The position numbers and the translations under genes were made by a program. The notes beneath the pieces are model-generated. The model was not told the DNA's origin. It was given only the letters and a program-made list of their open reading frames with translations, and did not search any database. Of a DNA stretch of 64,000 nt, positions 20,155 through 42,925 are shown piece by piece. The DNA is taken from the IMG/VR virus record IMGVR_UViG_3300045988_112440. One strand, written 5' to 3'. Source of the stretch: a virus. Numbering within the stretch: the first letter of the stretch is position 1; each line of letters opens with the position of its first letter.

Positions 20155-20183
20155 TTGACTTCTGTGATTGTATCCTGTATAAT
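20155..20183 (+). promoter_or_regulatory. consensus sigma70 promoter (TTGACT-17-TATAAT)
   Basis: Exact hexamers. The spacer and -10 region overlap an inverted copy of the 21-nt element. An 8-bp leader hairpin sits at 20182-20206. Confidence 0.7.
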
Positions 20184-20190
20184 GTAGCTA
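20170..20190 (-). promoter_or_regulatory. 21-nt conserved element, inverted copy
   Basis: + strand GTATCCTGTATAATGTAGCTA is the reverse complement of TAGCTACATTATACAGGATAC. Confidence 0.7.
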
Positions 20191-20226
20191 TGGAACGGAG
20201 CTACATCATTGTAGAGGAGAATGACT

Positions 20227-20646
20227 ATGGATAACAATATTGACCCAAAGGTCGGAGAGGTTTGGTTGGTTGATCTATCCAATGCGACAGGTCATCAGCA
20301 GCGCGGCATTCGACCGTTCGTTGTGACAAGTAACAACAAGCGTAACTTCTTCAGCCCAACAATCAAAGGGAATCCGTTATCTTCAAGAATATATAAGCGT
20401 TCTCCGGTTCATGTTCTACTCTCAAAGGAAGACTGCGAGTTCCTAGAGGTTGATAGTATCGTTCTCTGCGAAGAGACTGATACACTTAACAAAGGACAGT
20501 TCATCAAGAAACTTGGTGTCTTGTCGGAGCGTCAGATGAATATGATTGCAATGGCAAGATGCAAAGATGAACCATTTTTGCTCGCAGCATTTCTGAGCGG
20601 TGTACAACATACTATGGAATTTCAGAATTTTGCCGCATTTGCTTGA
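20227..20646 (+). CDS. mazF: MazF/PemK-family endoribonuclease toxin-like protein
   Basis: VGEVWLVDLSNATGHQQRGIRPFVVTSNN...SPVHVLL fits the PemK signature; GAGGAG RBS 7 nt before ATG 20227. Confidence 0.75.
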   Translation: MDNNIDPKVGEVWLVDLSNATGHQQRGIRPFVVTSNNKRNFFSPTIKGNPLSSRIYKRSPVHVLLSKEDCEFLEVDSIVLCEETDTLNKGQFIKKLGVLSERQMNMIAMARCKDEPFLLAAFLSGVQHTMEFQNFAAFA

Positions 20647-20697
20647 TTTGTTCTCAGGTTTAATGGTACACTACATAATAAGAAGGAGTGTGCCACT

Positions 20698-21624
20698 ATG
20701 CTTACTGAAGAAAAAATCAAATCTTTTGCCGAAAAGTATTCTGATAGAAGCGGTGAGTTTGTTATATCGACGCTTAACCATGTTATGGATTACGAGGCCG
20801 AGCGTGGATATGAGTTGTTTGACTTCACAAAAGATGATTTTGTAAGGATGTTTGCTAAATACAATTGGGTGAACTCAAGTCGGTCGTTCAGAAATGTAAA
20901 GTCGATAATTACAGGGTACATCAAAAGTGATGATCGAGCGAGTATGTATGACTTAGCTGAATTCTCGGAGAGCGATGTGAGTTCAGACAATATGTACGAG
21001 GACAAGTATTTTGCATCAGTTGATGAGTTTGTTGATTTCTTGGACAAGTATGAAGAACCATATCAGATTCGTATGAACGTGATTGCCGTACTGTACTGGA
21101 TTGGACTTACTTCTGAAGAGGTTTCTAATCTGACAATCAACAATGTTGATTTTGAATCATGTACTGTTCTGAATAGGACCGGTGTTGACGCAAGACTGAT
21201 GAATATCATTAAGCAGTGTTATGAAATGAAACAATACGATGCTCCAAATATGGGAGGATACAGAACGTTTTATGTCATAAATGGTGATTACATCCTTCGC
21301 AAAACAGAGGATAGAACTGGTGCAGACAGTGATTCAAGAATGTCTACAAACACAATTCATAGTTATTTCACGCGCTTGAATGATATTCTCGAAAGAAGAT
21401 ATCATTCAAAGGCTTTAGACCGAAGACATCTGACTAGAAACGGCGAGTATGTCAAGGTTTATAACTACTGTAAAACTCATCCAGAATTTAATCTTGCAGA
21501 ACTTAGTTTCGGAAATGGTAAAGATCCTCTTGCGGACATTATCGGAAGAAAGTGCAGCAAGGTTGCCTACATTAGTTTCCGGCAAGGATACAAGGGCTGG
21601 ATCGAATACTTCCACAAAAATTAA
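20698..21624 (+). CDS. tyrosine-recombinase-like protein lacking the catalytic Arg (MrpR/YopR-like repressor candidate)
   Basis: SAM-like N-terminal domain. Has YWIGLTSEEVSNLTINNVDF where recombinases have G.R.SE; no clear HxxR..Y. Confidence 0.5.
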   Translation: MLTEEKIKSFAEKYSDRSGEFVISTLNHVMDYEAERGYELFDFTKDDFVRMFAKYNWVNSSRSFRNVKSIITGYIKSDDRASMYDLAEFSESDVSSDNMYEDKYFASVDEFVDFLDKYEEPYQIRMNVIAVLYWIGLTSEEVSNLTINNVDFESCTVLNRTGVDARLMNIIKQCYEMKQYDAPNMGGYRTFYVINGDYILRKTEDRTGADSDSRMSTNTIHSYFTRLNDILERRYHSKALDRRHLTRNGEYVKVYNYCKTHPEFNLAELSFGNGKDPLADIIGRKCSKVAYISFRQGYKGWIEYFHKN

Positions 21625-21627
21625 AAA

Positions 21628-21652
21628 CAGGGGGCTTCGGCCCCTTGATTTT
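21628..21652 (+). terminator. intrinsic terminator
   Basis: 8-bp stem CAGGGGGC-TTCG-GCCCCTTG followed by ATTTT. Confidence 0.75.
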
Positions 21653-21659
21653 AACATTG

Positions 21660-21680
21660 TAACTATATAACACAGGATAC
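21660..21680 (+). promoter_or_regulatory. 21-nt conserved element, forward copy
   Basis: TAACTATATAACACAGGATAC, with 21 nt between it and the Pnkp ATG. Confidence 0.7.
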
Positions 21681-21701
21681 TTATTAGAAAGGGAAATGTA
21701 G

Positions 21702-23915
21702 ATGAGAACGCTTTTGCTGTTCCGTGGAGCACCAGGTTGTGGGAAGTCCACCTATATTAAAGAGCATAATCTTGAACAGTACGTATTGAGTGCTGATACA
21801 CTTCGCCTTATGTGCCAGAGCGCACAGGAAACACCTGCCGGGCAGATGGAGATTTCTCCGCAGAATGATGATGTTGTATGGGAGATGCTTTTCAAACTGC
21901 TTGAGGTGCGTATGAGTCATGGCGAGTTTACCGTGATTGATGCAACGAATTCCAAGACGGTCGAAATGAATCGTTATAAGAATCTGGCAAAACAGTATCG
22001 TTATCGGATGTATGTTATTGACATGACTGACCTTCCGATTGAGGAATGCAAACGAAGAAACGCTCAGAGAGAATGGCTGAAGCGAGTTCCTGAAGCGGCC
22101 ATTGATAAGATGTACGCTCGGTTTGCTACTCAAAAAGTTCCTTCTGGCGTGACAGTTCTTCCTTCTACTACAGATGTGATGTCCGATTTGAATTACTGTC
22201 CGAATGACTTCAACCAGTGGAAGAAGATCCATGTCATCGGTGATGTTCATGGCTGTTATACTTGTTTAAGTGAATACCTTGGCGAGATGAAGGACGACGA
22301 ACTTTATATTTTCGTTGGTGATTATCTCAATCGTGGCATCGAAAACGTTGAGGTATTCAAGTTCTTGTGTGATGTTGTAAATAACAACCGCAAGAATGTG
22401 ATCCTTTTGGAAGGGAATCACGAGCGTTGGCTGAACAAGTGGGGGCATGATGAACCGGTTCAGAGTGAAGAGTTTGCAAACTACACTCGTCCGCAGCTTT
22501 TTAAAGCTGGTATTGATAAGAACACTGCTCGTAAGATCTATTCCAGAGTCGGCCAGTGTGCCTACTTTGAGTATGATGGTAAGCGGTATTTCGTGAGCCA
22601 CGGTGGTTTGAGTTATCTGCCTTATTTTCTTCCTTTCGTATCTGCTGACCAGATGATCAAAGGTGTAGGTCGCTATCCTGATATGCTAACCGTGGCTGAG
22701 TCTTGGGAAAAATCGATGCCTGATAGCTATATTCAGATATTCGGTCATCGAAATGTGCAGGATGTTCCTATTGATATGGGGCATCGGTGCTACAACCTCG
22801 AAGGAAAAATCGAGTTTGGTGGATATCTCCGTTGCGTGGAACTTGAACACGGTCAGCCCGTCAAGTGTGTAGAAACCAAGAATGATGTATTCCGAAAAGA
22901 GGAACCAAAGACCGAATCTGCCGTTGAAATGAAAACTGAGTTCGATAACGCAGAACTTGTTAGTAAGATGCGTCAAAGCAAATATGTGTTTGAGAAGCGA
23001 TTCGGAGATATTTCTTCTTTCAACTTCTCTCGTGAAGCATTTTATAAGAAGCATTGGGATGAGGTTTCTACCAAAGCAAGGGGATTGTTCATTAACACAA
23101 AGACGAATAAGATTGTAGCTCGAAGCTATGATAAGTTCTTTGCGGTTGATGAGCGGAATGAAACGAGAATTGGAAACCTACAGAACACTTTGAAGTTCCC
23201 GGTGACTGCGTATCTAAAAGAGAACGGATTTCTTGGTATCATTTCGTATGATGCAGAACAGGATGGCCTGTTCATTGCAAGTAAATCCACTCCTGAAGGG
23301 CCTTTTGCAGATATGTTCCGAAAGATTCTCATGGATACGACTTCTGATGAAGATCGTAAGAATCTGAAAGAAGTTGCAAAAGAGAATGGCTCCATCATCT
23401 TCGAGGTGATTGATCCTGTGAATGATGCTCATATCATTGAATACAAGAAACCACACATTGTTTTGCTGGATATTATTGCGAATGATATGAACTTCAGTGT
23501 GATGGATTACGATGATCTGAAGCGTGTTGCTGAAAAGTGTCATTTGCAGATTAAGGAGAAGGTTAAGACTTTTGAGAACTGGAGTAAATTTTATCCTTGG
23601 TACGAGGAAGTCATGAACGAGAACTATCTGCATCATGGCTTTGAACACGTTGAAGGCTTTGTTTTGCGAGACAGCAACAATTTTATGTTTAAGATGAAGC
23701 TTCCTTATTATAAGCACTGGAAGTTCTTGCGTGGTGTCATGCAGAGTGTCCAGAAGCGTGGTTATTACGAAAACACTGCCAAGCTATTTACTGCTGAGGA
23801 TAACCTGTTCTATGGTTGGATGCGTGAGCAACGAGAGAAAGACCAGGAGTCTTTTTGCAAGAAGGGTATTATTCAGCTGCGGAATGAGTTCTACGCAAGT
23901 CAGCAGAAGAGCTGA
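21702..23915 (+). CDS. pnkp: trifunctional polynucleotide kinase-phosphatase-ligase (bacterial Pnkp-type RNA repair enzyme)
   Basis: N-terminal P-loop GAPGCGKS; central metallophosphoesterase GDVHGC/GDYLNRG/EGNHE; C-terminal adenylyltransferase with the KENGF lysine motif (near 23216). Confidence 0.85.
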   Translation: MRTLLLFRGAPGCGKSTYIKEHNLEQYVLSADTLRLMCQSAQETPAGQMEISPQNDDVVWEMLFKLLEVRMSHGEFTVIDATNSKTVEMNRYKNLAKQYRYRMYVIDMTDLPIEECKRRNAQREWLKRVPEAAIDKMYARFATQKVPSGVTVLPSTTDVMSDLNYCPNDFNQWKKIHVIGDVHGCYTCLSEYLGEMKDDELYIFVGDYLNRGIENVEVFKFLCDVVNNNRKNVILLEGNHERWLNKWGHDEPVQSEEFANYTRPQLFKAGIDKNTARKIYSRVGQCAYFEYDGKRYFVSHGGLSYLPYFLPFVSADQMIKGVGRYPDMLTVAESWEKSMPDSYIQIFGHRNVQDVPIDMGHRCYNLEGKIEFGGYLRCVELEHGQPVKCVETKNDVFRKEEPKTESAVEMKTEFDNAELVSKMRQSKYVFEKRFGDISSFNFSREAFYKKHWDEVSTKARGLFINTKTNKIVARSYDKFFAVDERNETRIGNLQNTLKFPVTAYLKENGFLGIISYDAEQDGLFIASKSTPEGPFADMFRKILMDTTSDEDRKNLKEVAKENGSIIFEVIDPVNDAHIIEYKKPHIVLLDIIANDMNFSVMDYDDLKRVAEKCHLQIKEKVKTFENWSKFYPWYEEVMNENYLHHGFEHVEGFVLRDSNNFMFKMKLPYYKHWKFLRGVMQSVQKRGYYENTAKLFTAEDNLFYGWMREQREKDQESFCKKGIIQLRNEFYASQQKS

Positions 23916-23922
23916 ATTAAAA

Positions 23923-23952
23923 TAGACATTTTATCGTGATTTTCGTTAGAAT
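23923..23952 (+). promoter_or_regulatory. promoter candidate for the tRNA array (TAGACA-18-TAGAAT)
   Basis: Hexamers seen by eye; overlaps the DR-IR-DR structure at 23932-23972. Confidence 0.35.
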
Positions 23953-24030: not shown

Positions 24031-24115
24031 GGGGATATGGTGAAATTGGCAGCCACGCTTGATTCAAACTCAAGTGTCGAAAGACGTATCGGTTCAAATC
24101 CGATTATCCCTACCA
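24031..24115 (+). tRNA. tRNA-Leu(CAA), type II, CCA encoded
   Basis: Acceptor GGGGATA/TATCCCT; anticodon loop TTCAAAC; long variable arm GTCGAAAGAC; T arm ATCGG-TTCAAAT-CCGAT. Confidence 0.9.
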
Positions 24116-24312
24116 TGAAGATCAGTTGTTCTGGCTAGATCGGGGATTGGCCGTTCATTGGCAAACGACAGGTATCATACCGGTAAAGGATGCCGAGCCA
24201 AATAGGAAGGGGAATAAGGTGCAAGCCGAGTAGCTGTCGGACGAATACCCTTCAGGTAGCCAGTAAACCGGAATGTAAAACAAATGTTGGCTGTTTCTGA
24301 TCTTCTATATAA
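24116..24312 (+). ncRNA. structured inter-tRNA spacer, candidate ncRNA (class unknown)
   Basis: Nested helices 24117-24125/24297-24305 (9 bp), 24126-24130/24279-24283, 24131-24137/24257-24263 (7 bp) and 24166-24171/24234-24239 (6 bp). Confidence 0.4.
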
Positions 24313-24395
24313 GCTACCGTGGTGGAATGGCAGACACCGGAGACTTAAAATCTCCTGTCGGAAACGACGTGCCCGTTCAAGTCGGGTCGGTAGCA
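24313..24395 (+). tRNA. tRNA-Leu(TAA), type II
   Basis: Acceptor GCTACCG/CGGTAGC; anticodon loop CTTAAAA; long variable arm; no encoded CCA. Confidence 0.9.
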
Positions 24396-24402
24396 TTGAT
24401 AT

Positions 24403-24478
24403 CCGGGTGTAGCTCAGTTGGAAGAGCGCGTGCTTTGGGAGCATGAGGCCGCAGGATCGTGACCTGTCACTCGGACCA
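24403..24478 (+). tRNA. tRNA-Pro(TGG), CCA encoded, atypical T-loop
   Basis: Acceptor CCGGGTG/CACTCGG; anticodon loop TTTGGGA; T-loop is ATCGTGA instead of TTCRANN. Confidence 0.8.
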
Positions 24479-24507
24479 ACCCGAAAGGGCATGTAGAATT
24501 TTTCATT

Positions 24508-24566
24508 CACATTATTCCCAGCTCTCTGGAAACGGAGCAGTGTGACGTAGTAAGCTGGGCATATGC
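24508..24566 (+). ncRNA. tRNA-leader hairpin module, copy A
   Basis: CACATTATT then CCCAGCT(24517-24523)...AGCTGGG(24553-24559). It ends 7 nt before tRNA-Gln. Confidence 0.45.
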
Positions 24567-24637
24567 TGCGCCATCGCCAAGCGGTAAGGCAGAGGACTTT
24601 GACTCCTCCATCACAGGTTCGACCCCTGTTGGCGCAA
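24567..24637 (+). tRNA. tRNA-Gln(TTG)
   Basis: Acceptor TGCGCCA/TGGCGCA; anticodon loop CTTTGAC; T arm ACAGG-TTCGACC-CCTGT. Confidence 0.85.
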
Positions 24638-24642
24638 TTTAT

Positions 24643-24724
24643 GCGGATATGGTGGAATGGCAGACACGCCAGACTTAGGATCTGGTGCTTCGGCGTGTGG
24701 GTTCGATGCCCACTATCCGCACCA
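24643..24724 (+). tRNA. tRNA-Leu(TAG), type II, CCA encoded
   Basis: Acceptor GCGGATA/TATCCGC; anticodon loop CTTAGGA; long variable arm. Confidence 0.9.
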
Positions 24725-24770
24725 CGATCATAGAATGGTTGCGTACCGTTTGTTGATCTCCTTTGACTGC

Positions 24771-24830
24771 CACTATTATTCCCAGCTCACCAGTGATGGT
24801 GCAGTAGTGCTTTGTAAGCTGGGTGATTAT
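24771..24830 (+). ncRNA. tRNA-leader hairpin module, copy B
   Basis: CACTATTATT then CCCAGCT(24781-24787)...AGCTGGG(24817-24823), with inner hairpin CACCA-GTGA-TGGTG. It ends 7 nt before tRNA-Gly. Confidence 0.45.
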
Positions 24831-24905
24831 GCAGCGGTCGTACAATGGTTAGTATATCAGCCTTCCAAGCTGAGGATGAGGTTTCGACTACCTTTCGCTG
24901 CTCCA
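24831..24905 (+). tRNA. tRNA-Gly(TCC), CCA encoded
   Basis: Acceptor GCAGCGG/TCGCTGC; anticodon loop CTTCCAA; T loop TTCGACT. Confidence 0.85.
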
Positions 24906-24996
24906 ATCTCGTATGGGTAGGATTTTTAGCGGTCAAATCCGGCTGCGCCTGTGCGAGATACCACCCCGAAAGGGGAGAGATATAGGAAATGTGCAT

Positions 24997-25092
24997 CACT
25001 GTTATTCCTTCCTCGTCTATATGATATAGATGCAATAGTGTTTATAAGGAAGGTTCCCAGTTGAATAGTTGCAGCTGTTTGACTGGGAATAT
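24997..25092 (+). ncRNA. tRNA-leader hairpin module, copy C (two stacked hairpins)
   Basis: CACTGTTATTCC, then CCTTCCT(25007-13)/AGGAAGG(25047-53), then TTCCCAGT(25054-61)/ACTGGGAA(25082-89). It ends 3 nt before tRNA-Met. Confidence 0.4.
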
Positions 25093-25169
25093 GGGATAGT
25101 AGCTCAGTTGGTCAGAGCTGGCGGCTCATAACCGCTTGGTCGCGAGTTCAAATCTTGCCTGTCCCACCA
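25093..25169 (+). tRNA. tRNA-Met(CAT) elongator type (or Ile2 if lysidine-modified), CCA encoded
   Basis: Acceptor GGGATAG/CTGTCCC; anticodon loop CTCATAA; T loop TTCAAAT; pair 1-72 is G-C, so it is not an initiator. Confidence 0.85.
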
Positions 25170-25263: not shown

Positions 25264-25284
25264 TAGCTATGTAACACAGGATAC
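25264..25284 (+). promoter_or_regulatory. 21-nt conserved element, forward copy
   Basis: TAGCTATGTAACACAGGATAC, with 17 nt between it and the MTase GTG. Confidence 0.7.
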
Positions 25285-25301: not shown

Positions 25302-26841
25302 GTGAAACATTATGGAAGTATTTGCGAGATTGATGGTTCTAAGATTGAGCCTGTCTCGTGTATCACTGGTGGTTCACCTTGTTAGCCAAGACCTTTCTAT
25401 TGCCGGTAAGCGGGCAGGTTTGGCTGGAGAACGGTCTGGTCTATTTATGGAAATGATTCGTGTGATAAAGGAAATGAGGGATGCCACCAATGGAGAATGT
25501 CCAAAATTTGCAATCTGGGAAAATGTTAGAGGAGCACTTTCCTCAAACAACGGAGAAGACTTCCGATGCGTCTTGGAAGAATTTGCACACATCGTCGAAG
25601 CAGACGCTACAATTCCTAAACCTTCGGGAAAAGGCGGAAAATGGTCTAAATCCGGCGCAATTTCCGGTAATGGATGGTCTTTGGCATGGAGACTCTTTGA
25701 TGCTCAATATTGGGGAGTGCCCCAACGTCGTCAAAGAATCGCGCTTGTCATGGATTTTAGAGGACAACGTGCCGCAGAAATACTATTTGAGCGCACGGGC
25801 GTGCCAGGGAATCCTGACGAGAGCATCCCGACGTGGCAAAGCTTTGCCAGAATTACTGAAGAATGCACTGCTAAAGATGATCGAGTGGTGGGAGAAAAAA
25901 GCTTTTGTATTGTCGGAAACATGATTGACAGAGAAACCAATATGAACGGGACTGGTGTAAAAGAAGATACTGCTTTTACTATAAACACTATTGACCGTAA
26001 TGCTGTTGCCTATACTTTAAAGATTCGTTCAGGATGCGAAGGTGGTGGCAAAGGCGCACTGGTACAGACCGAGAAGAGTGCAACGCTTTCTACATTGCAA
26101 GATCAAACGCTAATCTGCTTGGCAGACAACACCTCTTTACATAATTTAAAACAAAAGATTTGTGTCTTGAATGATCAGGGCGGTAGTGTAATGAATGTTT
26201 CTTACGATATTGTAGGAACAATAAGAGCACAAGAGCATGGTCATCAACCAATTGTATTTGAGAGCCATAGTCAAGATGCTCGATACACCCAGCAAGGTAA
26301 TACAAGTCCGGCTTGTACGGCTCAATGGGGAACTGGTGGCAATAATATGCCGCTTGTTGCCGAAAAGAAAGCCTTTGCAATGCAACGCATTGGTGAATAC
26401 AAGGAAAGTGAACAAGCTAGTACGATGAAATCTCGTGACTACAAGGATGCTACTGACTTGATTGCAGAGAAGGAAACGAAGAATCTGCAATGGATTGTTC
26501 GTCGCCTGACTCCTGTTGAGTGTGAACGGTTACAGGGTTTTCCTGATGGATGGACCGATATTGGCGAGTGGTTTGATGAGAATGGTAAAAAGCACAAACC
26601 TGCCGATTCTCCTCGTTACAAAGCACTCGGTAATTCAATCGCTTTGCCTCAGTGGTATTGGATTTTCCAGAAAATGAAACCGTATATCGGTGAAAATCCC
26701 ACGCTTGGCAGTCTTTTCGATGGAATTGGTGGCTTTCCGCTTGTCTTTGAAAGTATGTATGGTGATGGTGCTGCTATCTGGGGATCAGAGATTGAACCGT
26801 TCTGCGTTGCAGTAACGAAGAAGCATTTCCCAGAAGACTAA
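25302..26841 (+). CDS. dcm: C5 DNA cytosine methyltransferase with circularly permuted motif order, disrupted at the catalytic PCQ motif (needs a +1 shift at 25383, or is a pseudogene)
   Basis: AGGAGG RBS, then GTG 25302 gives VKHYGSICEIDGSKIEPVSCITGGSPC-TAG. The +1 frame continues SQDLSIAGKRAG, ENV (FAIWENVRG), QRRQRI, a long TRD, RRLTPVECERLQGFP and LGNSIA. Motif I/II (LFDGIGGF..SEIEPF..KKHFP) then sits at the C-terminus. Confidence 0.8.
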
Positions 26842-27597: not shown

Positions 27598-27743
27598 CGA
27601 CCCGAAGGGTTGTTAAATATAAGCCATCAATAAACCAGACGGAGGATAATACATAAAATGAATAGTGCATGAATTGATTCAAGACAATAAAAAGAGACAT
27701 AAGTGATTACAGATGAAACAAAATTACATAAAGGAGACTTGAT

Positions 27744-28858: not shown

Positions 28859-28879
28859 TAACTAAGTGACACAGGATAC
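28859..28879 (+). promoter_or_regulatory. 21-nt conserved element, forward copy
   Basis: TAACTAAGTGACACAGGATAC, with 36 nt between it and ATG 28916. Confidence 0.65.
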
Positions 28880-30076: not shown

Positions 30077-30768
30077 TGGAACTTACCCGTAAATGCAAGA
30101 TTTGCGGGAAGAACATTTTCATCGAGCGAGACCGTAGCACTTTTTTTTACGACAAGACTGGTTTTTACCACAAGGATTGTTTTGTAGAAAAAAAGAAAAA
30201 TCAAAAACGCCCTTGGACAGATGACCTGCTAAGGGCATTTTTTGACAAAATGAAAGATACTACGGATAAAAAAGTCGATGATCTTCTTTCCAAAAAGAGA
30301 GAGCAAGACCACAATCGTGAGCTTGCGCATATCAAACAGGAAGAAAAAAAGATTCTTTTCGACCATATTCGAGATACATACGCCCCAGCGGTTGTTCCTG
30401 GCAGCTTCTACTCGAAACTTACGCAGTTAATTTCCGGTAATTATTACAAATATAGAGGTTCTATTCCTCCGCTAGAACTTTACGATATGTGGGTTCTAGC
30501 AAAACCCCGACTAGATAAAATAATTGCCGAGAAAGAAGCAAAGGGCTGTGATATGAGTCAGCGATGGAATTACGACTTGGCTGTTTTATTGGCTCAATAC
30601 CCTAGTTATCTCGAACGAAAAGAAAGACTTGCTTCGATTCGCAGTGAAAGCGAAGACAAAACGAAGGAAAATCTGACTGAAACGGTACTGAAACGGATGA
30701 AAACAGCACCGAAACAGAGTAAAAACGAGAATGAAATTGATATAAATGCAATTCTCGATGAGATATAA
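30076..30768 (+). CDS. hypothetical protein with N-terminal zinc finger (possible helicase loader/initiator)
   Basis: CKICGK..x..HKDC; sits between the ATPase and helicase genes. Confidence 0.5.
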   Translation: MELTRKCKICGKNIFIERDRSTFFYDKTGFYHKDCFVEKKKNQKRPWTDDLLRAFFDKMKDTTDKKVDDLLSKKREQDHNRELAHIKQEEKKILFDHIRDTYAPAVVPGSFYSKLTQLISGNYYKYRGSIPPLELYDMWVLAKPRLDKIIAEKEAKGCDMSQRWNYDLAVLLAQYPSYLERKERLASIRSESEDKTKENLTETVLKRMKTAPKQSKNENEIDINAILDEI

Positions 30769-30785
30769 AAGAGGGAGGTGGATGA

Positions 30786-32309: not shown

Positions 32310-32318
32310 GGAACTACA

Positions 32319-35080: not shown

Positions 35081-35081
35081 T

Positions 35082-35423
35082 ATGGGAAATTGGAAACGTG
35101 CTATCGCCATCGACTTTGATGGCACTCTCTGTGAGAATAATTATCCTGATATCGGTGAGCCAAACTGGAATGTCATTTATCAAGCAATTCAGGAACAGAA
35201 GCACGGTGCTGGTTTGATTCTCTGGACTTGCCGTGAAGGAAAGCTTTTGTATGATGCAATGGAGGCTTGCTTTGATTGGGGTATTCAGTTTGACGCCATC
35301 AACGAGAGTCTTCCTGAGTGGAAAGAGCATTTTGGCACTGCTCCTAGAAAGGTTGGAGCTGATGAATATTGGGACGATAAGGCTGTAAAAGTAAAGAATG
35401 GAGAGTTGGTTGACAATGAATAA
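35082..35423 (+). CDS. HAD-superfamily-like small hydrolase
   Basis: AIDFDGTLC (DxDGT motif I). Confidence 0.5.
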   Translation: MGNWKRAIAIDFDGTLCENNYPDIGEPNWNVIYQAIQEQKHGAGLILWTCREGKLLYDAMEACFDWGIQFDAINESLPEWKEHFGTAPRKVGADEYWDDKAVKVKNGELVDNE

Positions 35424-35721
35424 AGTGGATAATTACGATTTGTCATTAAATTTGCTTGACAAAGCACATCAATCACTTGCACATACTATTGCAGATTTAG
35501 AACTACTTCGGGAAGGCACAGCATTTAATCAGATTTTAAATGATGGTGCTCATATTATTGAACCGGATGAATTGACTCATATTCTTGATAAATTTGCAGA
35601 GCAGCATCCAAATTGGGAGATTTGTATCGAAACTGACCACGGATCGGTTAGTGAGAAATTTAAGATGGATCATGTTTTCTATGAAGGTATGGGAGATATG
35701 ATTGTTCTTGATTTTGAATGA
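35416..35721 (+). CDS. hypothetical protein
   Basis: ATG 35416 overlaps the upstream stop region. Confidence 0.5.
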   Translation: MNKVDNYDLSLNLLDKAHQSLAHTIADLELLREGTAFNQILNDGAHIIEPDELTHILDKFAEQHPNWEICIETDHGSVSEKFKMDHVFYEGMGDMIVLDFE

Positions 35722-35724
35722 AAA

Positions 35725-35973
35725 ATGGAAAAACGACGATATAGATATTACAAAATTGATTACCGTACATATAATTATACGCTCAAGAAATATCACAACT
35801 TACACAGAGAAATCTACGCTGAAAATGCAAGAGATGCAGTTCAAATGCTAAAAAGTAAAGAGTGTAATCGTGAGTTTGAGGTTGTTAAAGTCTACTTTGT
35901 TGATATTTTCGGTGATAGAAACGATAGATTTTATCCACGAACTTATGTGATTGATAAAGAAGATTTTGAGTGA
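35725..35973 (+). CDS. hypothetical basic protein
   Basis: ORF with an ATG 3 nt after the upstream stop. Confidence 0.55.
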   Translation: MEKRRYRYYKIDYRTYNYTLKKYHNLHREIYAENARDAVQMLKSKECNREFEVVKVYFVDIFGDRNDRFYPRTYVIDKEDFE

Positions 35974-35982
35974 GGTGAGTAT

Positions 35983-36744
35983 ATGGTTTACATTACAGGC
36001 GATATTCATGGTGATTTTAATCGTTTTTTAGAATTGGAAAAGTTTTGCCATGAACACAATCTTGGAAAGAATGACTGGATTGTCTGCCTTGGCGATGTCG
36101 GTTTGAACTATTACGGCAAGGACGACCCTCGCGAATGGAGTATTAAGACTATCGCCGCAGATATTCCTGCAAATCTGTTTTGTATTTATGGCAACCACGA
36201 ACGCCGCCCTTCTCGTAAGGATGGTTATAGGACAAAGGAAATCAGTGGAGATATTTGCGGCAAAGTGTGGCATGACCCACATTATCCCAATCAGTATTTC
36301 GCTATCGATGGCGAAGTTTACCAGATTCTTGCTGATAGGAAAATTCTGAACTGTCTTGTTTGTGGCGGAGCTTATTCCGTAGATAAATGTTATCGGTTGG
36401 AGCGTGGATGGAACTGGTGGCCGGATGAACAGCCTAATGAGAAGACTAAGAAAAAGATCTGGAATATTACACATGACCCTCAAATCGATGGTATTGATGT
36501 TATGCTCACGCATACTTGTCCATTCCGGTTCATTCCAACTGAATTGTTTATCGGTGGTATTGATCAAAGCACAGTAGACCAGTCAACTGAAATATTCTTT
36601 GATAATATATACGAATGTTATCCTAACGATTGTAAACCATTCTGGTACTTCGGCCATTTCCATGGTAACAAGTACACCGATGACTATGTGATGCTTTTCG
36701 ACGATATTATTAAGTTTGGAGATAAGGTGAAGAGTGATGGTTAA
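35983..36744 (+). CDS. calcineurin-like metallophosphoesterase
   Basis: GDIHGD, GDVGLNY and GNHE motifs. Confidence 0.75.
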   Translation: MVYITGDIHGDFNRFLELEKFCHEHNLGKNDWIVCLGDVGLNYYGKDDPREWSIKTIAADIPANLFCIYGNHERRPSRKDGYRTKEISGDICGKVWHDPHYPNQYFAIDGEVYQILADRKILNCLVCGGAYSVDKCYRLERGWNWWPDEQPNEKTKKKIWNITHDPQIDGIDVMLTHTCPFRFIPTELFIGGIDQSTVDQSTEIFFDNIYECYPNDCKPFWYFGHFHGNKYTDDYVMLFDDIIKFGDKVKSDG

Positions 36745-37060
36745 AGATAAAAATTTACGAGTGCTTGATTATATTGATGGCAAGGAAATACTCATTCAGA
36801 TGGGAGAGGAAGGTTCGGAACTGTCGAAAGCTGCGATAAAGTTTTATCGTGCAATCGACATGAAGAACCCAACGCCCGTAAGCATTAACGAGGCTTATGA
36901 AAACCTCGTAGAAGAATTCGGGGATGTGCTGAACTGTATTTACGCATACTATGATGATGACGAGGATTGCATCTTGGCGTTTACATCGAAAGCGAATGAG
37001 ATTGCTAACGAGAAGCGCAAGCGCTGGATTAAGCGTCTGAAGGAACGCGACCAGCTTTAA
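36737..37060 (+). CDS. MazG-like nucleotide pyrophosphohydrolase
   Basis: EEGSELSKA ... EEFGDVLNC, EExxE/D-type helices. Confidence 0.5.
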   Translation: MVKDKNLRVLDYIDGKEILIQMGEEGSELSKAAIKFYRAIDMKNPTPVSINEAYENLVEEFGDVLNCIYAYYDDDEDCILAFTSKANEIANEKRKRWIKRLKERDQL

Positions 37061-37077
37061 TGGTGAAAGGAGAATAG

Positions 37078-40000
37078 ATGTCAGATAATTTTGTAAATCT
37101 TCATGTACATACAGCGCAGGGTTCGTTACTTGACTCTATTCTTACCGTCAAGGAACTTGTAGACTTTGCCAAAGAGAATGGTCAGAAGGCTATTGCTGTT
37201 ACGGACCATGGCAAGATGCACTCTTTTGTTGACCAAGTTAAAGCTTGTAAAGCAGAAGGTATTAAGCCTATCATCGGCTGTGAAGTTTATGAAGTAGATA
37301 ATCAGGCAGAGAAAGCTGACACAAAAGACTATAAACAACCTCGTTACCATCTTATTTTACTAGCGAAGAACGAGACCGGTTTAAAAAATCTATTTAAGGT
37401 TGTTTCAAATGCTTGCGTTGATGGCATGTATAAAAAGCCTCGAACTTCTTTGAACATCATTGAACAAAACGGGTGGGGTAAAGGTATCATCTGTCTTACG
37501 GCCTGTCAAGTTGGTCGAATGAGTAGATTGCTTGTTGATGGAAACGAGACCGAGGCATGGCAGTTATGGAACAAACTGAAATGGATCTTTGATGACGTGT
37601 TTATGGAAGTTCAGTCTCATGATACGCCAGATCAGGCTGAAGCTAATGCCAAAATTGCAGCTTTTATCAAAAAGTACAATCTTCCGTATACTATTACAAC
37701 AGATGCTCATATGCTTTCCAAGGAAGATGTTGAGGCACATTCAGTTTTTGTAGAAATTGGAGAAGGACGAGAAGTTGGAGAAAGTTATGTTGACTGTTAT
37801 CTTCAGACCGAAGACGATGTGCTGAGAACACTTTCAAAGCAGTTTGATGAAGACTTCATCCGAGAAGGCTGCTCAATGTCTGTGAAAATTGCAGATATGG
37901 TTGACGATATTGATATTGGTCTTGGTCAGCCAAACCAGATGCCAGAAGTGAAAATTGAAGGTAAATTTGATTCGCATCTGGATTACCTGTGCTACCTTGT
38001 TTATTCTACTTTCGATGAAAAATTCGGATGGATGAGTAAAGAAGAACAGCAAACCCGGCGAGACAGAATTGAGATGGAGCTTGACGTTTTGGAATATGTT
38101 GACTACATCGACTATTTCATCATGCTGTATATGCTTTGTAAGGTGGCTGATGAACGAGGTATCCCTCGTGGCTATTCTCGTGGTTCTGGTGCAAACTGTC
38201 TATGTCTATTTATGCTAAACGTTACGCAGATTGATTCTGTTCGTTGGGATCTTGACTTCTCTCGTTTTGCAAATAAGGGTCGTAAGAGTCTCGCGGACTT
38301 CGACTTTGATATTAGCCGTCGTCGTCGCAAAGAACTTGTTTCTATTGCAGAAGAGCTTTTTGGAAAAGAGAGTGTAGCACCAATCGCAACTTTTAATTCT
38401 CTGTCTACCAAGGTTGCCATTAAGGATATTGGCAAGGTACTGAACGAAGATCCAGAAAGCCCATATTATATGCAGATTCCGTATGAATTGCGAAATGAAG
38501 TTGCTAAGTTGATTCCGACCGTGAAAACATTGGATGATCTCGGAGAAGAAGTTGAGAAGGAAGTTCTATTGAAGGACATTCTTGGAAAGAGCGAGCAGCT
38601 TTCTAATGTATATGATAAGTTCCCTCTGTGGTTTAAGTACGTTATGCGGCTTGAAGGTTTACCGAAGAGTATGGGTCGCCATGCTGCAGGAACTTTGATT
38701 ACACCTAAGCCTGTTATTGAATATTGCCCTCTCTGTATGGATAGAGAAGGCAATCAGATGTGTCAGCTTGAAATGCACAATGCTATGGATGACCTGTCTC
38801 TAGTTAAGATGGATTTTCTTGGTCTTGAAAATTTGGACACGATTGATGACACATTAAAGATGGCCCATCTTACTTGGAAAGATGTTGATATCAACCATCT
38901 TGATTTGAATGACAAGGCAGTCTATGACGCTGTTTATAAATCTGGACACACAATTGGTATTTTTCAGATGGAGTCTGCTGAAGCTCGAAAGATGTGTGTT
39001 GAAGCAAAATGTGACAACGCCGAGGATATCATTGTTGTGAATGCAGCAAACCGCCCTGGCACTAAGGATAGCTTCCCGACGTACTGTTCCAATAAGCTTC
39101 ATCCAGAGACTATCAAACTACTTCATCCTGATATCAAACAGCTTTTTGCCAAGACTCAGTACATTCTTCTTTATCAGGAACAGGCTCTGGCAGTATTTCG
39201 TTATGCAGGATTCCCTGAAACTGAGGTTGACAATGCTCGTCGTGCCATTGGTAAGAAAAAGAAAGATGTTATGGCATCCTTGGAGGTCCAGTTTAGAGAT
39301 GGTCTTCACAAGAAAGGATGGAACGATTATCAGATTTCTGAGATGTGGGCATTGATCTTGAAACAGGCTTCTTATTCCTTCAACCGGGGCCACGCAGTTG
39401 CTTATGGGCTTCTTTCTTACCTGACAGCATACCTGAAGACTCATTATACTGAGTATTTCATGGCTGCGTGTATGATTACTAAAGAAGATGATTCTGGCAA
39501 AATGGGTGTGTTTATCAATGAATGTGACCGGCTACATATTCGGGTTCTTCCTCCAAGTGTTAACAAGTCTGATATGGAATTTAAGGCCGATGCGGAGAAA
39601 CACACAATTCTGTTTGGTTTGAAAGCCATTAAGGGAATGGGTGAGAGTGTCGCAGCAGGAGTGATTGCAGACCGTCCATATTCTGGATTGGCAGACTTTG
39701 TTCAGAGAGCAAACGGTGGCAAGATTGGCACTTCAAACGTTGTCAAGTTGATTAAGGCGGGAGCTATTCCAACAAAGGACAAGAGAAAAATCTTAATCAC
39801 TTTTGCAAATATGGTTTTTGAGAACGAGTATAAAGAGAAGGGTTTTCATGAGATGGCATCTCTTCCCAAAATCTCTGTTCTTAAAGACGAATATGGGATT
39901 GACACAAATTATATTAAAGATAAGCCTACTAGACTTGCTTTATATAATAAGGCAAGAAGGGTGCGCTGGGAGGCAGATACAGAGAACCGCAAAAAGGAAA

Positions 40001-40422
40001 AAGACAAGAGACGAAAAGATTTCATGCAAGCGTTTGCCGAGAAATATATGCAAGACGAGCACATGTGGGAATTTGAAACCCTTTCAATGTTCTTGACTAG
40101 CAATCCCATTAAGGATGCTTGTACCTATATTGATGCTGGTCTTGATACTGTAGAGGATGGCGGTAAGGCAACTGCTATTTGTGTCATCGTAGACATCCAA
40201 AAAAAGAAGGATAAACGTGGTAACCAGTTTGCATACTTACATGTTTATACGACATGTGGTATTGTTGAAATGATTTGTTGGGCATCTCAGTATGCACGAT
40301 ATTCAAGTCTGATTTCAAAGGGCAGCGATCTTGCAATCCTTTGCAAGAGAAAAGAAAATTCGTACATTGTTGAGAAGATGAAGCCTTATAAGCAGTGGCT
40401 GCAAGATAGAGAGATAGCGTAA
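37078..40422 (+). CDS. dnaE: DNA polymerase III alpha subunit (PHP + polymerase core)
   Basis: PHP FVNLHVHTAQGSLLDS, VTDHG; 1114 aa, with the DFDxD-type and HhH regions in the expected order. Confidence 0.9.
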   Translation: MSDNFVNLHVHTAQGSLLDSILTVKELVDFAKENGQKAIAVTDHGKMHSFVDQVKACKAEGIKPIIGCEVYEVDNQAEKADTKDYKQPRYHLILLAKNETGLKNLFKVVSNACVDGMYKKPRTSLNIIEQNGWGKGIICLTACQVGRMSRLLVDGNETEAWQLWNKLKWIFDDVFMEVQSHDTPDQAEANAKIAAFIKKYNLPYTITTDAHMLSKEDVEAHSVFVEIGEGREVGESYVDCYLQTEDDVLRTLSKQFDEDFIREGCSMSVKIADMVDDIDIGLGQPNQMPEVKIEGKFDSHLDYLCYLVYSTFDEKFGWMSKEEQQTRRDRIEMELDVLEYVDYIDYFIMLYMLCKVADERGIPRGYSRGSGANCLCLFMLNVTQIDSVRWDLDFSRFANKGRKSLADFDFDISRRRRKELVSIAEELFGKESVAPIATFNSLSTKVAIKDIGKVLNEDPESPYYMQIPYELRNEVAKLIPTVKTLDDLGEEVEKEVLLKDILGKSEQLSNVYDKFPLWFKYVMRLEGLPKSMGRHAAGTLITPKPVIEYCPLCMDREGNQMCQLEMHNAMDDLSLVKMDFLGLENLDTIDDTLKMAHLTWKDVDINHLDLNDKAVYDAVYKSGHTIGIFQMESAEARKMCVEAKCDNAEDIIVVNAANRPGTKDSFPTYCSNKLHPETIKLLHPDIKQLFAKTQYILLYQEQALAVFRYAGFPETEVDNARRAIGKKKKDVMASLEVQFRDGLHKKGWNDYQISEMWALILKQASYSFNRGHAVAYGLLSYLTAYLKTHYTEYFMAACMITKEDDSGKMGVFINECDRLHIRVLPPSVNKSDMEFKADAEKHTILFGLKAIKGMGESVAAGVIADRPYSGLADFVQRANGGKIGTSNVVKLIKAGAIPTKDKRKILITFANMVFENEYKEKGFHEMASLPKISVLKDEYGIDTNYIKDKPTRLALYNKARRVRWEADTENRKKEKDKRRKDFMQAFAEKYMQDEHMWEFETLSMFLTSNPIKDACTYIDAGLDTVEDGGKATAICVIVDIQKKKDKRGNQFAYLHVYTTCGIVEMICWASQYARYSSLISKGSDLAILCKRKENSYIVEKMKPYKQWLQDREIA

Positions 40423-40434
40423 GAGGGTTGTAAA

Positions 40435-41349
40435 GTGGCAGATAAGAAATTTAATGAAAATATGATTCGTTGCTACATCAGGATAAAACGAGTCTTTTAT
40501 CCGAAAGATGGGAGGGAAGTGGAGCCCGGCGGCTTCGCCACTTTCTCTGCCGAGGTGGTAAAAGTCAAGCAGGGACATCCTATCATGAGCCGATACAGCG
40601 ACCTCCGGCTAAAAGGCAACGTTCCTAGCCTCGATATGAATAAAACTTATTCGTTCTGTGGTGAATATGTTCATCATGAAAAGTTTGGTGATCAGTATAA
40701 AATTATCTACATGAATGAGTTTCAAGAGATTACTGACCCGGAAGAACAAAAAAGCTTTCTCCGTTTTATCTTGACCGACCATCAGTTTGAGATGCTTTAT
40801 GAAGCATTCAAGAATCCGTATGAAATCATCAAGAACGGTGATGTCAAGTCTCTTTGTACTGTTAGCGGCATTACGGAAGGTCGAGCACAAAAGATTATTG
40901 ACTCCTTTGAAAACAACATTGATAACAGTGAAGCGTACACAAAACTGATTGAGTACGGTTTGACTCCCAGTGCTATTGAAAAGCTTGTTCGTCAGTATCA
41001 CGGTGCAGACATTCTGGTAAAAAAGATTGAAGAGAATCCTTACGTCTTGATTGATGATGTGTATGGCATCGGCTGGAAAAAAGCTGACGCTCTTGCTTTA
41101 AATATGGGCTTAAAGCACAATTCGCAATTCAGAATCGAAGCCTACGTCATGCATTTTCTTGCCGCTCGTGCCGAAGAAGGTAACTCTATTATCTCGGCAA
41201 ACCAGACAATCAATAGCTGTATTAAGGAACTTGATTTGAACGAGGGTGATCAAGAAGTTATCAAAATGGCACTTTTCCATCTGCATGATGTCCGTGAAAC
41301 GCTTTGGTGGAGTGATGACCGTCAGGAATTTGCTTTAACTAGAGTGTGA
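40435..41349 (+). CDS. recD2: RecD2-like helicase, N-terminal (OB + HhH) part, ended by an in-frame TGA
   Basis: GTG start. HhH repeats SGITEGRAQKII and VYGIGWKKADALA. The same frame continues into the helicase core. Confidence 0.75.
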   Translation: MADKKFNENMIRCYIRIKRVFYPKDGREVEPGGFATFSAEVVKVKQGHPIMSRYSDLRLKGNVPSLDMNKTYSFCGEYVHHEKFGDQYKIIYMNEFQEITDPEEQKSFLRFILTDHQFEMLYEAFKNPYEIIKNGDVKSLCTVSGITEGRAQKIIDSFENNIDNSEAYTKLIEYGLTPSAIEKLVRQYHGADILVKKIEENPYVLIDDVYGIGWKKADALALNMGLKHNSQFRIEAYVMHFLAARAEEGNSIISANQTINSCIKELDLNEGDQEVIKMALFHLHDVRETLWWSDDRQEFALTRV

Positions 41350-41421
41350 AATCTGGAAGATAGTATTGCGAATGAAATCAAGCGTCTGGCGGATGCTCCT
41401 GTTGATCCGATTGGTCAAAAT

Positions 41422-42765
41422 ATGGATGCAGCAATCAATGAGGCCGAAAATGCGCTTGGCATCGAGTATACCGAAGAACAGAGAGATGCCATTAAAAAGG
41501 TATGCTCTAGCAACGTCTGTATTTTAACAGGCTACGGCGGAACTGGCAAAAGTACCGTTGTCGCTGGTGTCTTAAAAGTTCTTCGTGGTAAGTCTTTTGC
41601 ACAGACTGCACTCTCTGGCCGTGCTGCCGCTCGTATGCAGGAGATTACTGGTCAGGATGGAAAGACGATTCATCGTCTCCTTGGATATGACATCGAGAAC
41701 GGTGGGTTTGTTCACGATAAGGACAATCCTCTGGATGAGGACATCATCATTCTGGATGAGACCTCCATGGTTGGTGCTCAATTGTTTTACGATTTGATTC
41801 AGGCAATCGAAACCGGCAAGCGATTCATCATGATTGGTGATGACGGTCAGCTTGAGAGTATCGGTATGTGTAACATCTTCAAGGATATGCTTGCATCTAA
41901 GGTTGTTCCTGTGGCTCGTTTGACTAAGATCCATCGTCAGGCAGCCAAGTCTGCAATTATCACGGAGAGCATTAAGGTTCGTAACGCTACGCAATTGGTG
42001 CCTTATGGCTGGGCTGGCAATGAGATTCGTGGTGAACTTCGTGATTTGGAGCTTGATATCTATAAAGACGCAAGTGAGTCATTCAACCACATTATCAATC
42101 AGTACCGTACCTTATATAATAAGGTAGGGAATGATAGTGCGAAGATTCAGATTGTGCTTCCACAGAAGCTGCGTGGTAGTATCTGTACCTATGAAGTCAA
42201 TAATGCTATTCAGGAAATTGTGAATCCGAGTCGTGGTCAAGCAGAAGCAAAGGTCACAATCTATGGTGATGGCAAGGATAGAGCGTACACTCTGCGTGAG
42301 GGTGATCAGGTCATTATCAACAAGAACAACTATGAGCTTCACACATACAATCTCAAGACAAAGAAAAAAGAAGAGAAGTGTCCGGTGTTCAACGGAAACC
42401 GTGGCATTATCCGAAAGATTGAGAATAGTTTTATCCTGGTTGATTTTGACCAGTGGGGAACGATCTTCATTCCACATTACTTTGGTGGGAATAACGTCTG
42501 GGCAACACTTGAACTTGCTTATGCTTTAAGTTGTCATAAGTTGCAGGGCAGTGAGGCTCCGTATGTGATTGTTGGCATGGACAACTCTGCGTACCTGATG
42601 CTGACGAGAGAATGGCTCTATACGGCCATCACTCGTGCCAAGAAGTATTGTGTGATTTGCGCCGAAACTCATGCTCTTGATCGGGCTGTAAAGACTTCGA
42701 GAGTTCCATATAAGCGGACGTTCTTGAAGGAATTTTTACGGAAAGAATTTTCAGAAAAGCATTGA
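41422..42765 (+). CDS. recD2: RecD2-like helicase, SF1 ATPase core (same frame as 40435..41349; open from 41350)
   Basis: Walker A GYGGTGKST, DETSMV, SF1 C-terminal motifs HKLQGSE and YTAITRAK; no RBS before ATG 41422. Confidence 0.8.
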   Translation: MDAAINEAENALGIEYTEEQRDAIKKVCSSNVCILTGYGGTGKSTVVAGVLKVLRGKSFAQTALSGRAAARMQEITGQDGKTIHRLLGYDIENGGFVHDKDNPLDEDIIILDETSMVGAQLFYDLIQAIETGKRFIMIGDDGQLESIGMCNIFKDMLASKVVPVARLTKIHRQAAKSAIITESIKVRNATQLVPYGWAGNEIRGELRDLELDIYKDASESFNHIINQYRTLYNKVGNDSAKIQIVLPQKLRGSICTYEVNNAIQEIVNPSRGQAEAKVTIYGDGKDRAYTLREGDQVIINKNNYELHTYNLKTKKKEEKCPVFNGNRGIIRKIENSFILVDFDQWGTIFIPHYFGGNNVWATLELAYALSCHKLQGSEAPYVIVGMDNSAYLMLTREWLYTAITRAKKYCVICAETHALDRAVKTSRVPYKRTFLKEFLRKEFSEKH

Positions 42766-42790
42766 CAATCATATTGGTGTCCTGTATAAT
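42762..42790 (+). promoter_or_regulatory. consensus sigma70 promoter (TTGACA-17-TATAAT)
   Basis: Exact hexamers. The -35 overlaps the recD2 stop codon. The spacer and -10 overlap an inverted copy of the 21-nt element. Confidence 0.7.
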
Positions 42791-42797
42791 GTAGCTA
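42777..42797 (-). promoter_or_regulatory. 21-nt conserved element, inverted copy
   Basis: + strand GTGTCCTGTATAATGTAGCTA. Confidence 0.65.
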
Positions 42798-42835
42798 TAA
42801 GAAGTCTCTATCCCAGAGGCTTAAAATTCTCTCTT

Positions 42836-42856
42836 TAACTATATAATACAGGATAC
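42836..42856 (+). promoter_or_regulatory. 21-nt conserved element, forward copy
   Basis: TAACTATATAATACAGGATAC. Confidence 0.7.
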
Positions 42857-42859
42857 GGG

Positions 42860-42899
42860 AAAGAAATGGCTTGCTCGTAACGACAAGCCTTTCTTTATT
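42860..42899 (+). terminator. long hairpin / intrinsic-terminator-like element between two forward copies of the 21-nt element
   Basis: AAAGAAA-GGCTTG-TCG / CGA-CAAGCC-TTTCTTT (about 16 bp, one bulge), followed by ATT. Confidence 0.5.
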
Positions 42900-42904
42900 G
42901 GCTA

Positions 42905-42925
42905 TAACTATATAATACAGGATAC
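42905..42925 (+). promoter_or_regulatory. 21-nt conserved element, forward copy
   Basis: TAACTATATAATACAGGATAC, with 13 nt between it and the ligase ATG. Confidence 0.7.

Follow-up and report, generated by a model that had tools for sequence, protein, structure and literature searches.

A repeated 21-nucleotide element is the probable operator of an MrpR/YopR/SroF-like protein in an SPbeta-like prophage of Faecalibacterium

The 64,000-nucleotide (nt) stretch of the IMG/VR virus record IMGVR_UViG_3300045988_112440 (hereafter the window) covers 64 kb of a phage genome of approximately 135 kb and carries an intergenic 21-nt element, TARCTAHRTDAYACAGGAYAC (TA[AG]CTA-N6-ACAGGA[TC]AC), with exactly seven matches. 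The element is probably the repeated operator of the master repressor of the phage, an integrase-fold protein of the MrpR/YopR/SroF family encoded at 20698-21624. The window genes lie nearly all on the + strand according to the open reading frame (ORF) list, and copies of the element were divided into class A, inverted with respect to the genes and placed over a promoter, and class B, facing the gene that follows. The features around the seven copies are the following:

20155-20183, + strand: strong sigma-A-type promoter TTGACT-17-TATAAT of the mazF-like/mrpR-like operon, kept together with its -35 in relatives
20170-20190, - strand: element copy 1 (class A), inverted with respect to the genes and extending over approximately -21 to +1 of the promoter, whose -10 falls in the AT-rich center of the copy
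20221-20646, + strand: MazF/PemK-like toxin gene, first in the operon (Pfam PemK_toxin, 1.7e-19)
20698-21624, + strand: gene for the MrpR/YopR/SroF-family integrase-fold protein of 308 amino acids, the proposed reader of the element
21629-21645, + strand: terminator-like hairpin after the repressor gene
21660-21680, + strand: element copy 2 (class B), 14 nt after the terminator and ahead of pnkp
21702-23915, + strand: Pnkp-type kinase-phosphatase-RNA ligase gene (pnkp), headed by copy 2
25264-25284, + strand: element copy 3 (class B), after a tRNA cluster and a hairpin and ahead of the methylase ATG at 25312
25312-26841, + strand: C5 methylase gene, headed by copy 3
28859-28879, + strand: element copy 4 (class B), ahead of 28916
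28916-42765, + strand: replication operon (AAA_24/Sak4-like, DnaB-like, primase, RecJ-like, PolIII alpha, and RecD-like genes), headed by copy 4
42762-42790, + strand: strong sigma-A-type promoter TTGACA-17-TATAAT, its -35 overlapping the stop codon of the upstream helicase gene
42777-42797, - strand: element copy 5 (class A), inverted over the spacer and -10
42836-42856, + strand: element copy 6, between a weak hairpin and a strong terminator, degenerate in some relatives
42860-42899, + strand: intrinsic-terminator-like hairpin
42905-42925, + strand: element copy 7 (class B), ahead of the ligase gene
42939-44270, + strand: ATP-dependent DNA ligase gene

The first-pass annotation of the window had located the seven copies by eye, and all were recovered exactly and lay between called genes (7/7), with no 21-mer match in any of 100 dinucleotide-preserving shuffles (0/100). 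Its claim that the core is found nowhere else also held, as ACAGGAYAC was present only inside these copies (seven occurrences compared to 0.48 expected). A search allowing three mismatches revealed no further site in the window, and its intergenic DNA contained no other repeated motif, leaving no rival box for the MrpR-like protein. The 13-36 nt described between four forward copies and the downstream starts were measured as 21 nt (pnkp), 27 nt (methylase), 36 nt (28916), and 13 nt (ligase), the second of these becoming approximately 18 nt if the methylase is read from an alternative GTG start near 25303. A weaker look-alike noted at 27698-27716 did not survive scrutiny: it failed the three-mismatch search, its alignment by hand needed an indel in the invariant core, and no relative had a true copy before the YorF-like gene. 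The element appears to consist of two arms, TAGCTA and ACAGGATAC, flanking a 6-bp AT-rich center, and the consensus TAGCTA-yMTnAy-ACAGGATrC (21 bp) was asymmetric, with no dyad symmetry by inspection.

Only two TTGACW-17-TATAAT promoters occur in the window, at 20155 and 42762, and both lie under inverted copies. The earlier observation that these copies cover the spacer and -10 was correct, but not the description of the two promoters as the only perfect ones, as a perfect TTGACT-16-TATAAT promoter was identified at 19737-19764 before a gene for 121 amino acids at 19770. This promoter, just upstream of the immunity operon, is without the element and may be constitutive or under other control. 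On the gene strand, the class A center always read TATnnT and coincided with the -10, and the forward class B center read TATAAT, TATAAC, or TACAAT. With the start site placed by assumption 7 nt downstream of the -10, the element in either orientation would occupy a promoter from roughly -20 to +1, and its tolerant middle would double as the -10. The hairpin at 42860-42899 folded into a terminator-like stem with a U-rich tract behind it, in agreement with its original description. A strong sigma-A promoter with an inverted element, followed within approximately 10-100 nt by an intrinsic terminator and then by a forward element and gene, formed a cassette at two unrelated loci (window 42762-42899 and L022 2690-2790), and the cassette promoters alone would yield RNAs of approximately 35-105 nt.

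The first-pass annotation had also asked whether related phages share the element, and a pattern scan found it at more than 116 loci on IMG/VR contigs of approximately 80-140 kb that were 75-98% identical to the window. This gave 225 sites, comprising 222 from a single regular expression over the IMG/VR loci plus the seven of the window, less four that were counted twice. Class A accounted for 70 of the 225 (31%), inverted with respect to the genes with WGTCAA 8-10 nt beyond, i.e., over a TTGACA-17-TATAAT promoter, and 118 of the remaining 155 were class B, facing forward and preceding a ribosome-binding site and an ORF, in most cases by 13-36 nt. The sites formed approximately 12-15 families in the pan-genome, all ahead of early or middle genes. 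Loci picked by protein identity rather than by motif carried the element at four of four expected positions with at most one change, and the mazF-upstream copy was perfect in 17 of 17 relatives whose loci had been captured through a different copy. The relatives are so alike that footprinting across orthologous intergenic regions added little, showing an invariant element and -35 with a variable promoter spacer.

A third geometry was identified in relatives, in which a TTGAAT-17-TGgTATAAT promoter lies between two copies, the inverted one abutting the -35 and the forward one 9 nt after the -10; the element is therefore not itself the promoter there. At L030 1935-2195, a leader of approximately 250 nt (GC-rich and possibly structured by eye) followed such a two-element-bracketed promoter, preceding a gene for 389 amino acids of unknown function, and it matched no Rfam family.

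The genes under the element included the mazF-repressor operon, pnkp, the methylase, the replication operon, the ligase, small genes of unknown function, a gene for an unknown product of 689 amino acids, and a yonO homologue, and no recognizably structural gene was found downstream of it in the window or its relatives. The YonO homologue (927-936 amino acids; Pfam RdRP) was 24% identical to SPbeta YonO (BLASTP 2e-22), and a forward element precedes its start by 30 nt in the relatives; this YonO-type single-chain RNA polymerase was encoded at L030 5577-8360 and also in L023, L036, L071, and L073. Its presence lends some support to the alternative that the element is a phage-specific promoter for such a polymerase or for a phage sigma-like factor, where forward copies drive middle genes and inverted copies fire antisense, shutting the overlapping early sigma-A promoters. 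The promoter recognized by YonO is not known (PMC5467207), and a long conserved forward block 13-36 nt before gene starts, often after terminators and without a -35, is T7-like. This alternative is nonetheless unlikely: the 31% of sites that face away from genes are precisely registered over sigma-A promoters, copies stand ahead of early and replication genes and even of the yonO-like gene, with none seen before structural genes, the two-element-bracketed promoter is left unexplained, and SPbeta YonO uses one late promoter (PMC5467207). Two further observations treated below, the tracking of the element with the adjacent repressor allele and a host copy that faces away from its gene, also speak against it.

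The proposed reader was placed by deep profile and fold searches. Its protein family comprised 77 close members and 71 representatives down to approximately 20% identity, from which a profile of 37 was built. The Pfam domain MrpR_N_CB scored 21 bits in the 308-amino-acid protein, below the 27-bit cut-off, and was found in 24 of the 37 members. The 37-member profile matched YopR/MrpR in the PDB over its full length (8bjv/8bj6/8a0a; E approximately 4e-14). The AlphaFold model (predicted local distance difference test, pLDDT, 89.4) had as its best Foldseek match the Phi3T SroF-DNA structure (9rd5; E 2e-8; template modeling score, TM, 0.60), followed by SroF-Sar and YopR/MrpR; the top seven matches were all SroF/YopR/MrpR, and lambda Int and Cre appeared at E of approximately 1e-3 or worse. 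The catalytic Arg-I (R225 of Tn1549 Int), the only position of this kind mapped, aligned to Thr138, and the C-terminal Tyr298 was invariant in the family. Less sensitive comparisons were silent: BLASTP against YopR gave a co-linear alignment of 18% identity that was not significant (E 0.3), tblastn of the protein against 50,697 phages returned nothing, and PDB searches with the single sequence or a shallow profile returned nothing significant. By profile and modeled fold, the product is a remote homologue of MrpR/YopR/SroF; the first-pass annotation had likened its degenerate recombinase architecture to that of MrpR/YopR. The SroF monomer occupies an asymmetric box of 26 bp, nearly encircling the DNA and reading 24 bp (10.1101/2025.11.27.690993), which fits a 21-bp non-palindromic site usable either way round.

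Distant relatives (approximately 25% identical) maintained the gene order PemK toxin, MrpR-like, YorF, AAA_24, YorH, DnaB ... PolIII alpha. The MazF/PemK-like gene was directly 5' of the MrpR-like gene in all lineages examined, down to approximately 25% repressor identity, and no classical antitoxin gene was present between the two; the repressor might double as the antitoxin or addiction partner of the MazF-like toxin. The toxin-repressor pairs were located as follows:

Window 20221-21624: toxin-repressor pair of the window
L119 9506-11008: toxin-repressor pair
L121 713-2209: toxin-repressor pair
L506 9528-10930: toxin-repressor pair

Natural variation of the repressor supplied a further line of evidence. 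In L118 and L506-L508, the MazF-like toxin and the Pnkp N-terminus were 95% and 92% identical to those of the window, respectively, compared to 36% for the MrpR-like protein. The canonical 21-nt element was absent from these loci, and a different 20-nt element occupied the same two places in the same orientations, namely AAGTATAGTATACAGAATTT inverted over the spacer and -10 of a TTGACA-17-TATACT operon promoter (its -35 lying 9 nt beyond) and TAGTATAGTAAACAGAATTT forward, 13-15 nt after the repressor terminator. The more distant SPbeta-like phage L121 had a third repeat, TA[AG]GCACAC[AG]AACAC[TG], at three syntenic places, and so carries a third pair of repressor and element:

L121 680-695: at the toxin-repressor promoter
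L121 2262-2277: after the repressor terminator
L121 4231-4246: before the yorF operon

Scans of IMG/VR for the L121-type and L118-type elements gave single matches on unrelated contigs that were taken as chance, and relatives of P0079 were absent from IMG/VR. Joint swapping of repressor and element within constant surroundings is the hallmark of an immunity module and counts against reading by a polymerase or a host factor; for the phage promoter in particular, it is unexpected that the element should track the adjacent repressor allele when the other sampled sequence is 92-95% identical. This co-variation is the strongest argument for the repressor as reader of the element, and these phages would supply at least two natural immunity types.

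No close phage was found in GenBank, a megablast search with 9 kb returning fragments only. The integrase protein of the window was residue-identical at the prophage ends in contigs of 250-640 kb, in which the guanine-plus-cytosine (GC) content rose from 38% to 57% just past the integrase, and every named homologue of a substrate-binding protein encoded in the 57% GC flank was from Faecalibacterium. The window was therefore assigned to a temperate Faecalibacterium phage of approximately 135 kb and forms part of an SPbeta-like prophage. The integrase is encoded as follows:

62676-63830, + strand: Tn916-type integrase gene (384 amino acids) at the prophage end, marking the temperate lifestyle and the host

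The element was likewise present in the host genus. Scanning one genome per species over 185,579 species identified exact copies, one each, in 11 Faecalibacterium species that lack the prophage, together with approximately 10 chance-like singleton matches in other taxa and no prophage copies; under uniform composition, approximately 140 matches would be expected in 596 Gb. The host copy is part of the leader of aroD, the gene for type I 3-dehydroquinate dehydratase; it is inverted with respect to aroD and follows a TTGACA-17-TATTAT promoter by 12 nt. An rRNA operon diverges from aroD. Representative positions are given below:

L134 234-254: host copy of the element
L160 2849-2869: host copy of the element
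L130-L145: 11 Faecalibacterium loci with host copies
L158-L277: aroD loci

Inheritance of one chance event throughout the clade was considered for the Faecalibacterium matches and was judged unlikely once the host had been shown to be Faecalibacterium. Contig breaks beside the host copy were considered as a prophage junction and were explained instead by the adjacent rRNA operon.

Sampling of aroD loci without regard to the motif, anchored on the aroD start codon region, showed that 82 of 84 unique upstream sequences kept the element. Nucleotide diversity over 110 unique loci was 0.033 at the 16 element positions compared to 0.16, 0.12, and 0.31 at aroD codon positions 1, 2, and 3, and element positions 7, 8, 10, 12, and 20 varied freely (0.43). 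The host-variable positions coincided with those variable in the phages (Spearman 0.47, p 0.03; overlap p 0.011). The Faecalibacterium host, the exact copies in prophage-free species, the retention of the element at aroD, and this coincidence of variable positions support the element being the operator of a host Faecalibacterium aroD regulator that was copied by the phage, an arrangement that would wire phage development to host physiology and leave the MrpR-like protein to bind something else. Several findings render this quite improbable. The rest of the aroD 5' untranslated region (UTR) was about equally conserved, so the constraint is not element-specific, and one host copy per genome was found, with no second copy in the approximately 850 kb scanned (aroD-anchored and other Faecalibacterium loci, a few unrelated chance-match loci, and integrase loci). 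A 21-bp asymmetric site with 16 specified positions is of the SroF/MrpR monomer clamp type rather than that of an ordinary dimeric regulator, exchange of the element together with the MrpR-like allele in near-identical phages is unexpected for a host-factor site, and the MrpR-like protein would be left without any other candidate box. The orientation of the aroD-leader copy, facing away from aroD, also disfavors the phage-specific promoter discussed above.

With the MrpR-like protein as the reader of the element, the host leader may be conserved for the host's own reasons while the phage repressor reads its invariant part. We tentatively propose that the genus-wide aroD leader contains an operator, through which the repressor controls aroD in lysogens, or else that the early regulon shares its code with a host factor, a proposal held with less than even confidence. 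Under the first option, the repressor would have evolved to read only the strain-invariant positions of the host 5' UTR, and lysogens may have altered aroD expression. The exact aroD-leader copy thereby provides the concrete hypothesis that a prophage controls a host metabolic gene. Either option, if true, would tie a very common gut prophage directly, through regulation, to the core metabolism (shikimate pathway) of a keystone gut bacterium.

An action of the element in RNA was also considered, either as a 21-bp duplex of inverted and forward copies cleaved by RNase III, as an antisense to the aroD leader, or as a cleavage target of MazF. In the ligase leader and other modules, 59-128 nt separate inverted from forward copies, the RNA of a forward copy would be complementary to the aroD leader, and a MazF-like RNase gene lies beside the repressor gene. 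Four of the seven window copies stand alone, however, and folding of the ligase leader was dominated by the terminator rather than by pairing between elements. Class A transcripts would start at the edge of the element, given the assumed start site, which places the element outside that RNA, and the same sequence occurs in both orientations with respect to transcription and also upstream of a -35. An RNA-level role is accordingly regarded as very improbable.

The operator reading, in which the MrpR/YopR/SroF-family protein is the master repressor of the phage, is considered likely. The operator network suggested by the first-pass annotation is supported by the homology and predicted fold of the protein, the monomer site of SroF, a gene set that parallels the SPbeta regulon, and the co-variation of alleles. 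By analogy to SroF, one repressor monomer would clamp approximately two turns of DNA and read most of the bases, so that the site would work in either orientation. At class A sites, the bound repressor would occlude RNA polymerase at strong sigma-A promoters, giving negative autoregulation at the mazF-mrpR promoter, where copy 1 is likely the autoregulatory operator; the other class A site of the window lies in the ligase leader. At class B sites, the repressor may cover a weak promoter without a -35 whose -10 is the AT-rich center of the element or, alternatively, may block read-through into the operons of pnkp, the methylase, the replication genes, the ligase, and, in relatives, the yonO-like RNA polymerase. 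Transcription of these operons after derepression would correspondingly come from a weak -10-only promoter or from read-through. In the lysogen, the network would hold early and middle genes off, and inactivation of the repressor would free them together. We infer the physical binding, the sign of the regulation, and the promoter or roadblock role of class B.

Several observations weigh against this interpretation. The link between element and repressor is drawn from homology, geometry, and co-variation, and the heteroimmune data come from four short-to-medium contigs with two sites per genome. Stand-alone class B sites have no recognizable -35, and approximately half have C rather than T at the last -10 position. 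The aroD copies in prophage-free Faecalibacterium and their conserved 5' UTR leave room for a host reader protein. The only match to the LexA box GAAC-N4-GTTC in the window lies inside nrdD and is at chance level, and no Sar-like antirepressor was identified in the 64-kb window, where no profile search for Sar or AimR was made. Finally, other gene heads in L506 carry not the alternative element but a palindrome, [AG]ACG-N6-CGTTAA, at the following places:

L506 11028-11043: palindrome at the head of the RNA ligase gene
L506 15133-15148: palindrome at the head of the methylase gene
L506 16679-16694: palindrome at the head of a small gene

At the methylase head the palindrome stands in place of the 21-nt element of the window, which suggests a second swappable pair of regulator and site.

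Other genes of the window concern recombination, RNA repair, and translation. Beside the degenerate MrpR-like protein, the window encodes two bona fide tyrosine recombinases, the Tn916-type integrase and an Xer-like recombinase of 289 amino acids in the early region (11824-12693). Related prophage contigs have a Tn916-Xis-type gene directly upstream of the integrase gene, and its counterpart in the window is an unannotated ORF at 62407-62604. The 21702-23915 product (737 amino acids) combines kinase, metallophosphatase, and T4-Rnl1-type RNA ligase domains in the bacterial Pnkp architecture; encoded between the MazF-like RNase and a tRNA cluster, it may constitute an RNA/tRNA repair module. The tRNA cluster (24031-25169) contains seven genes (Leu-CAA/TAA/TAG, Pro-TGG, Gln-TTG, Gly-TCC, and Met) that decode A/U-rich codons, which fits a phage of 38-40% GC in a host of 57% GC, and a second tRNA cluster was identified at L030 12148-13162. 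An Rfam scan of the window and three relatives detected tRNAs only. Genes for ThyX and NrdD are also present in the window.

Comparison with known systems distinguished the element from promoters of single-chain polymerases. It shares with T7/T3/SP6-type promoters a near-invariant block of approximately 21-23 bp at a short fixed distance before genes, often after terminators. Such promoters always face their genes and require a cognate polymerase, unlike the element, of which 31% of sites are inverted over host-type promoters and which co-varies with a repressor gene. The host copy has a counterpart in phage lambda, whose CI repressor also binds the host gene pckA. In both cases a host metabolic gene has an operator-like sequence in its regulatory DNA, here the aroD leader; the aroD match differs from lambda CI/pckA in being exact at all specified positions and genus-wide.

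The closest parallels were found in the SPbeta group. Ten SPbeta promoters are bound by MrpR at the repeated element SPBRE, among them the promoter of the mrpR operon and that of yonP, which neighbors yonO; peaks are reported at the promoters of yopM, yonP, and yorE (PMC10516654). The SPbeta record places yopM directly ahead of yopR (mrpR), yonP beside yonO, and yorE, which precedes the replication genes, at the border of the examined stretch. The operon assignments of these three genes are presumed here from this gene order and from background on SPbeta. The likeness extends to an integrase-like repressor fold, in which the recombinase chemistry absent from MrpR may be lost here as well, to a non-palindromic repeat of approximately 15-21 bp over about ten early promoters, and to boxes at the operon of the repressor itself, at the yonO-like polymerase, and at the replication module (YorF/G/H/I...PolIII). 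Both phages also have a temperate genome of approximately 135 kb with a YorF-YorL/PolIII replication module and a YonO polymerase (here in relatives). In contrast, the protein is only approximately 18% identical to MrpR, and the element displayed no sequence likeness to SPBRE (approximately CAAATACAAAWAATATGTATA as derived from the SPbeta record) or to the Phi3T box Phi3TRE. The SPBRE copies located in a 50-kb stretch all face the downstream gene, whereas a third of the copies here are inverted and centered on the -10; the repressor shares its transcript with the MazF-like toxin, the phage lives in a gut anaerobe of the Clostridia, and one element copy lies in the host chromosome, whereas the MrpR peaks in chromatin affinity purification sequencing (ChAP-seq) all lie within SPbeta. 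Three features found here are unreported for SPBRE, namely a -10 in the tolerant center of the operator in either orientation, promoter-terminator-operator cassettes, and a MazF toxin co-transcribed with the repressor.

To our knowledge, repressors of the MrpR/SroF type have been described only in Bacillus SPbeta-like phages. The present locus would extend this type, an integrase turned monomeric DNA clamp on a long asymmetric box, to a prophage of Faecalibacterium, which is among the most abundant human gut bacteria and in which the homologue is unrecognizable by sequence, and it yields an operator sequence, its per-position tolerance, and about a dozen target promoters. SroF-Sar and Phi3TRE offer the best structural match, with a box of unrelated sequence (CAGTAATTTTATTTTTATTCTTAATG) that is AT-rich in its center, comparable to the two specific arms around a 6-bp AT-rich center found here. 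The element is therefore best read as an analogue of SPBRE and Phi3TRE with an unrelated sequence, a distant host, and a new geometry.

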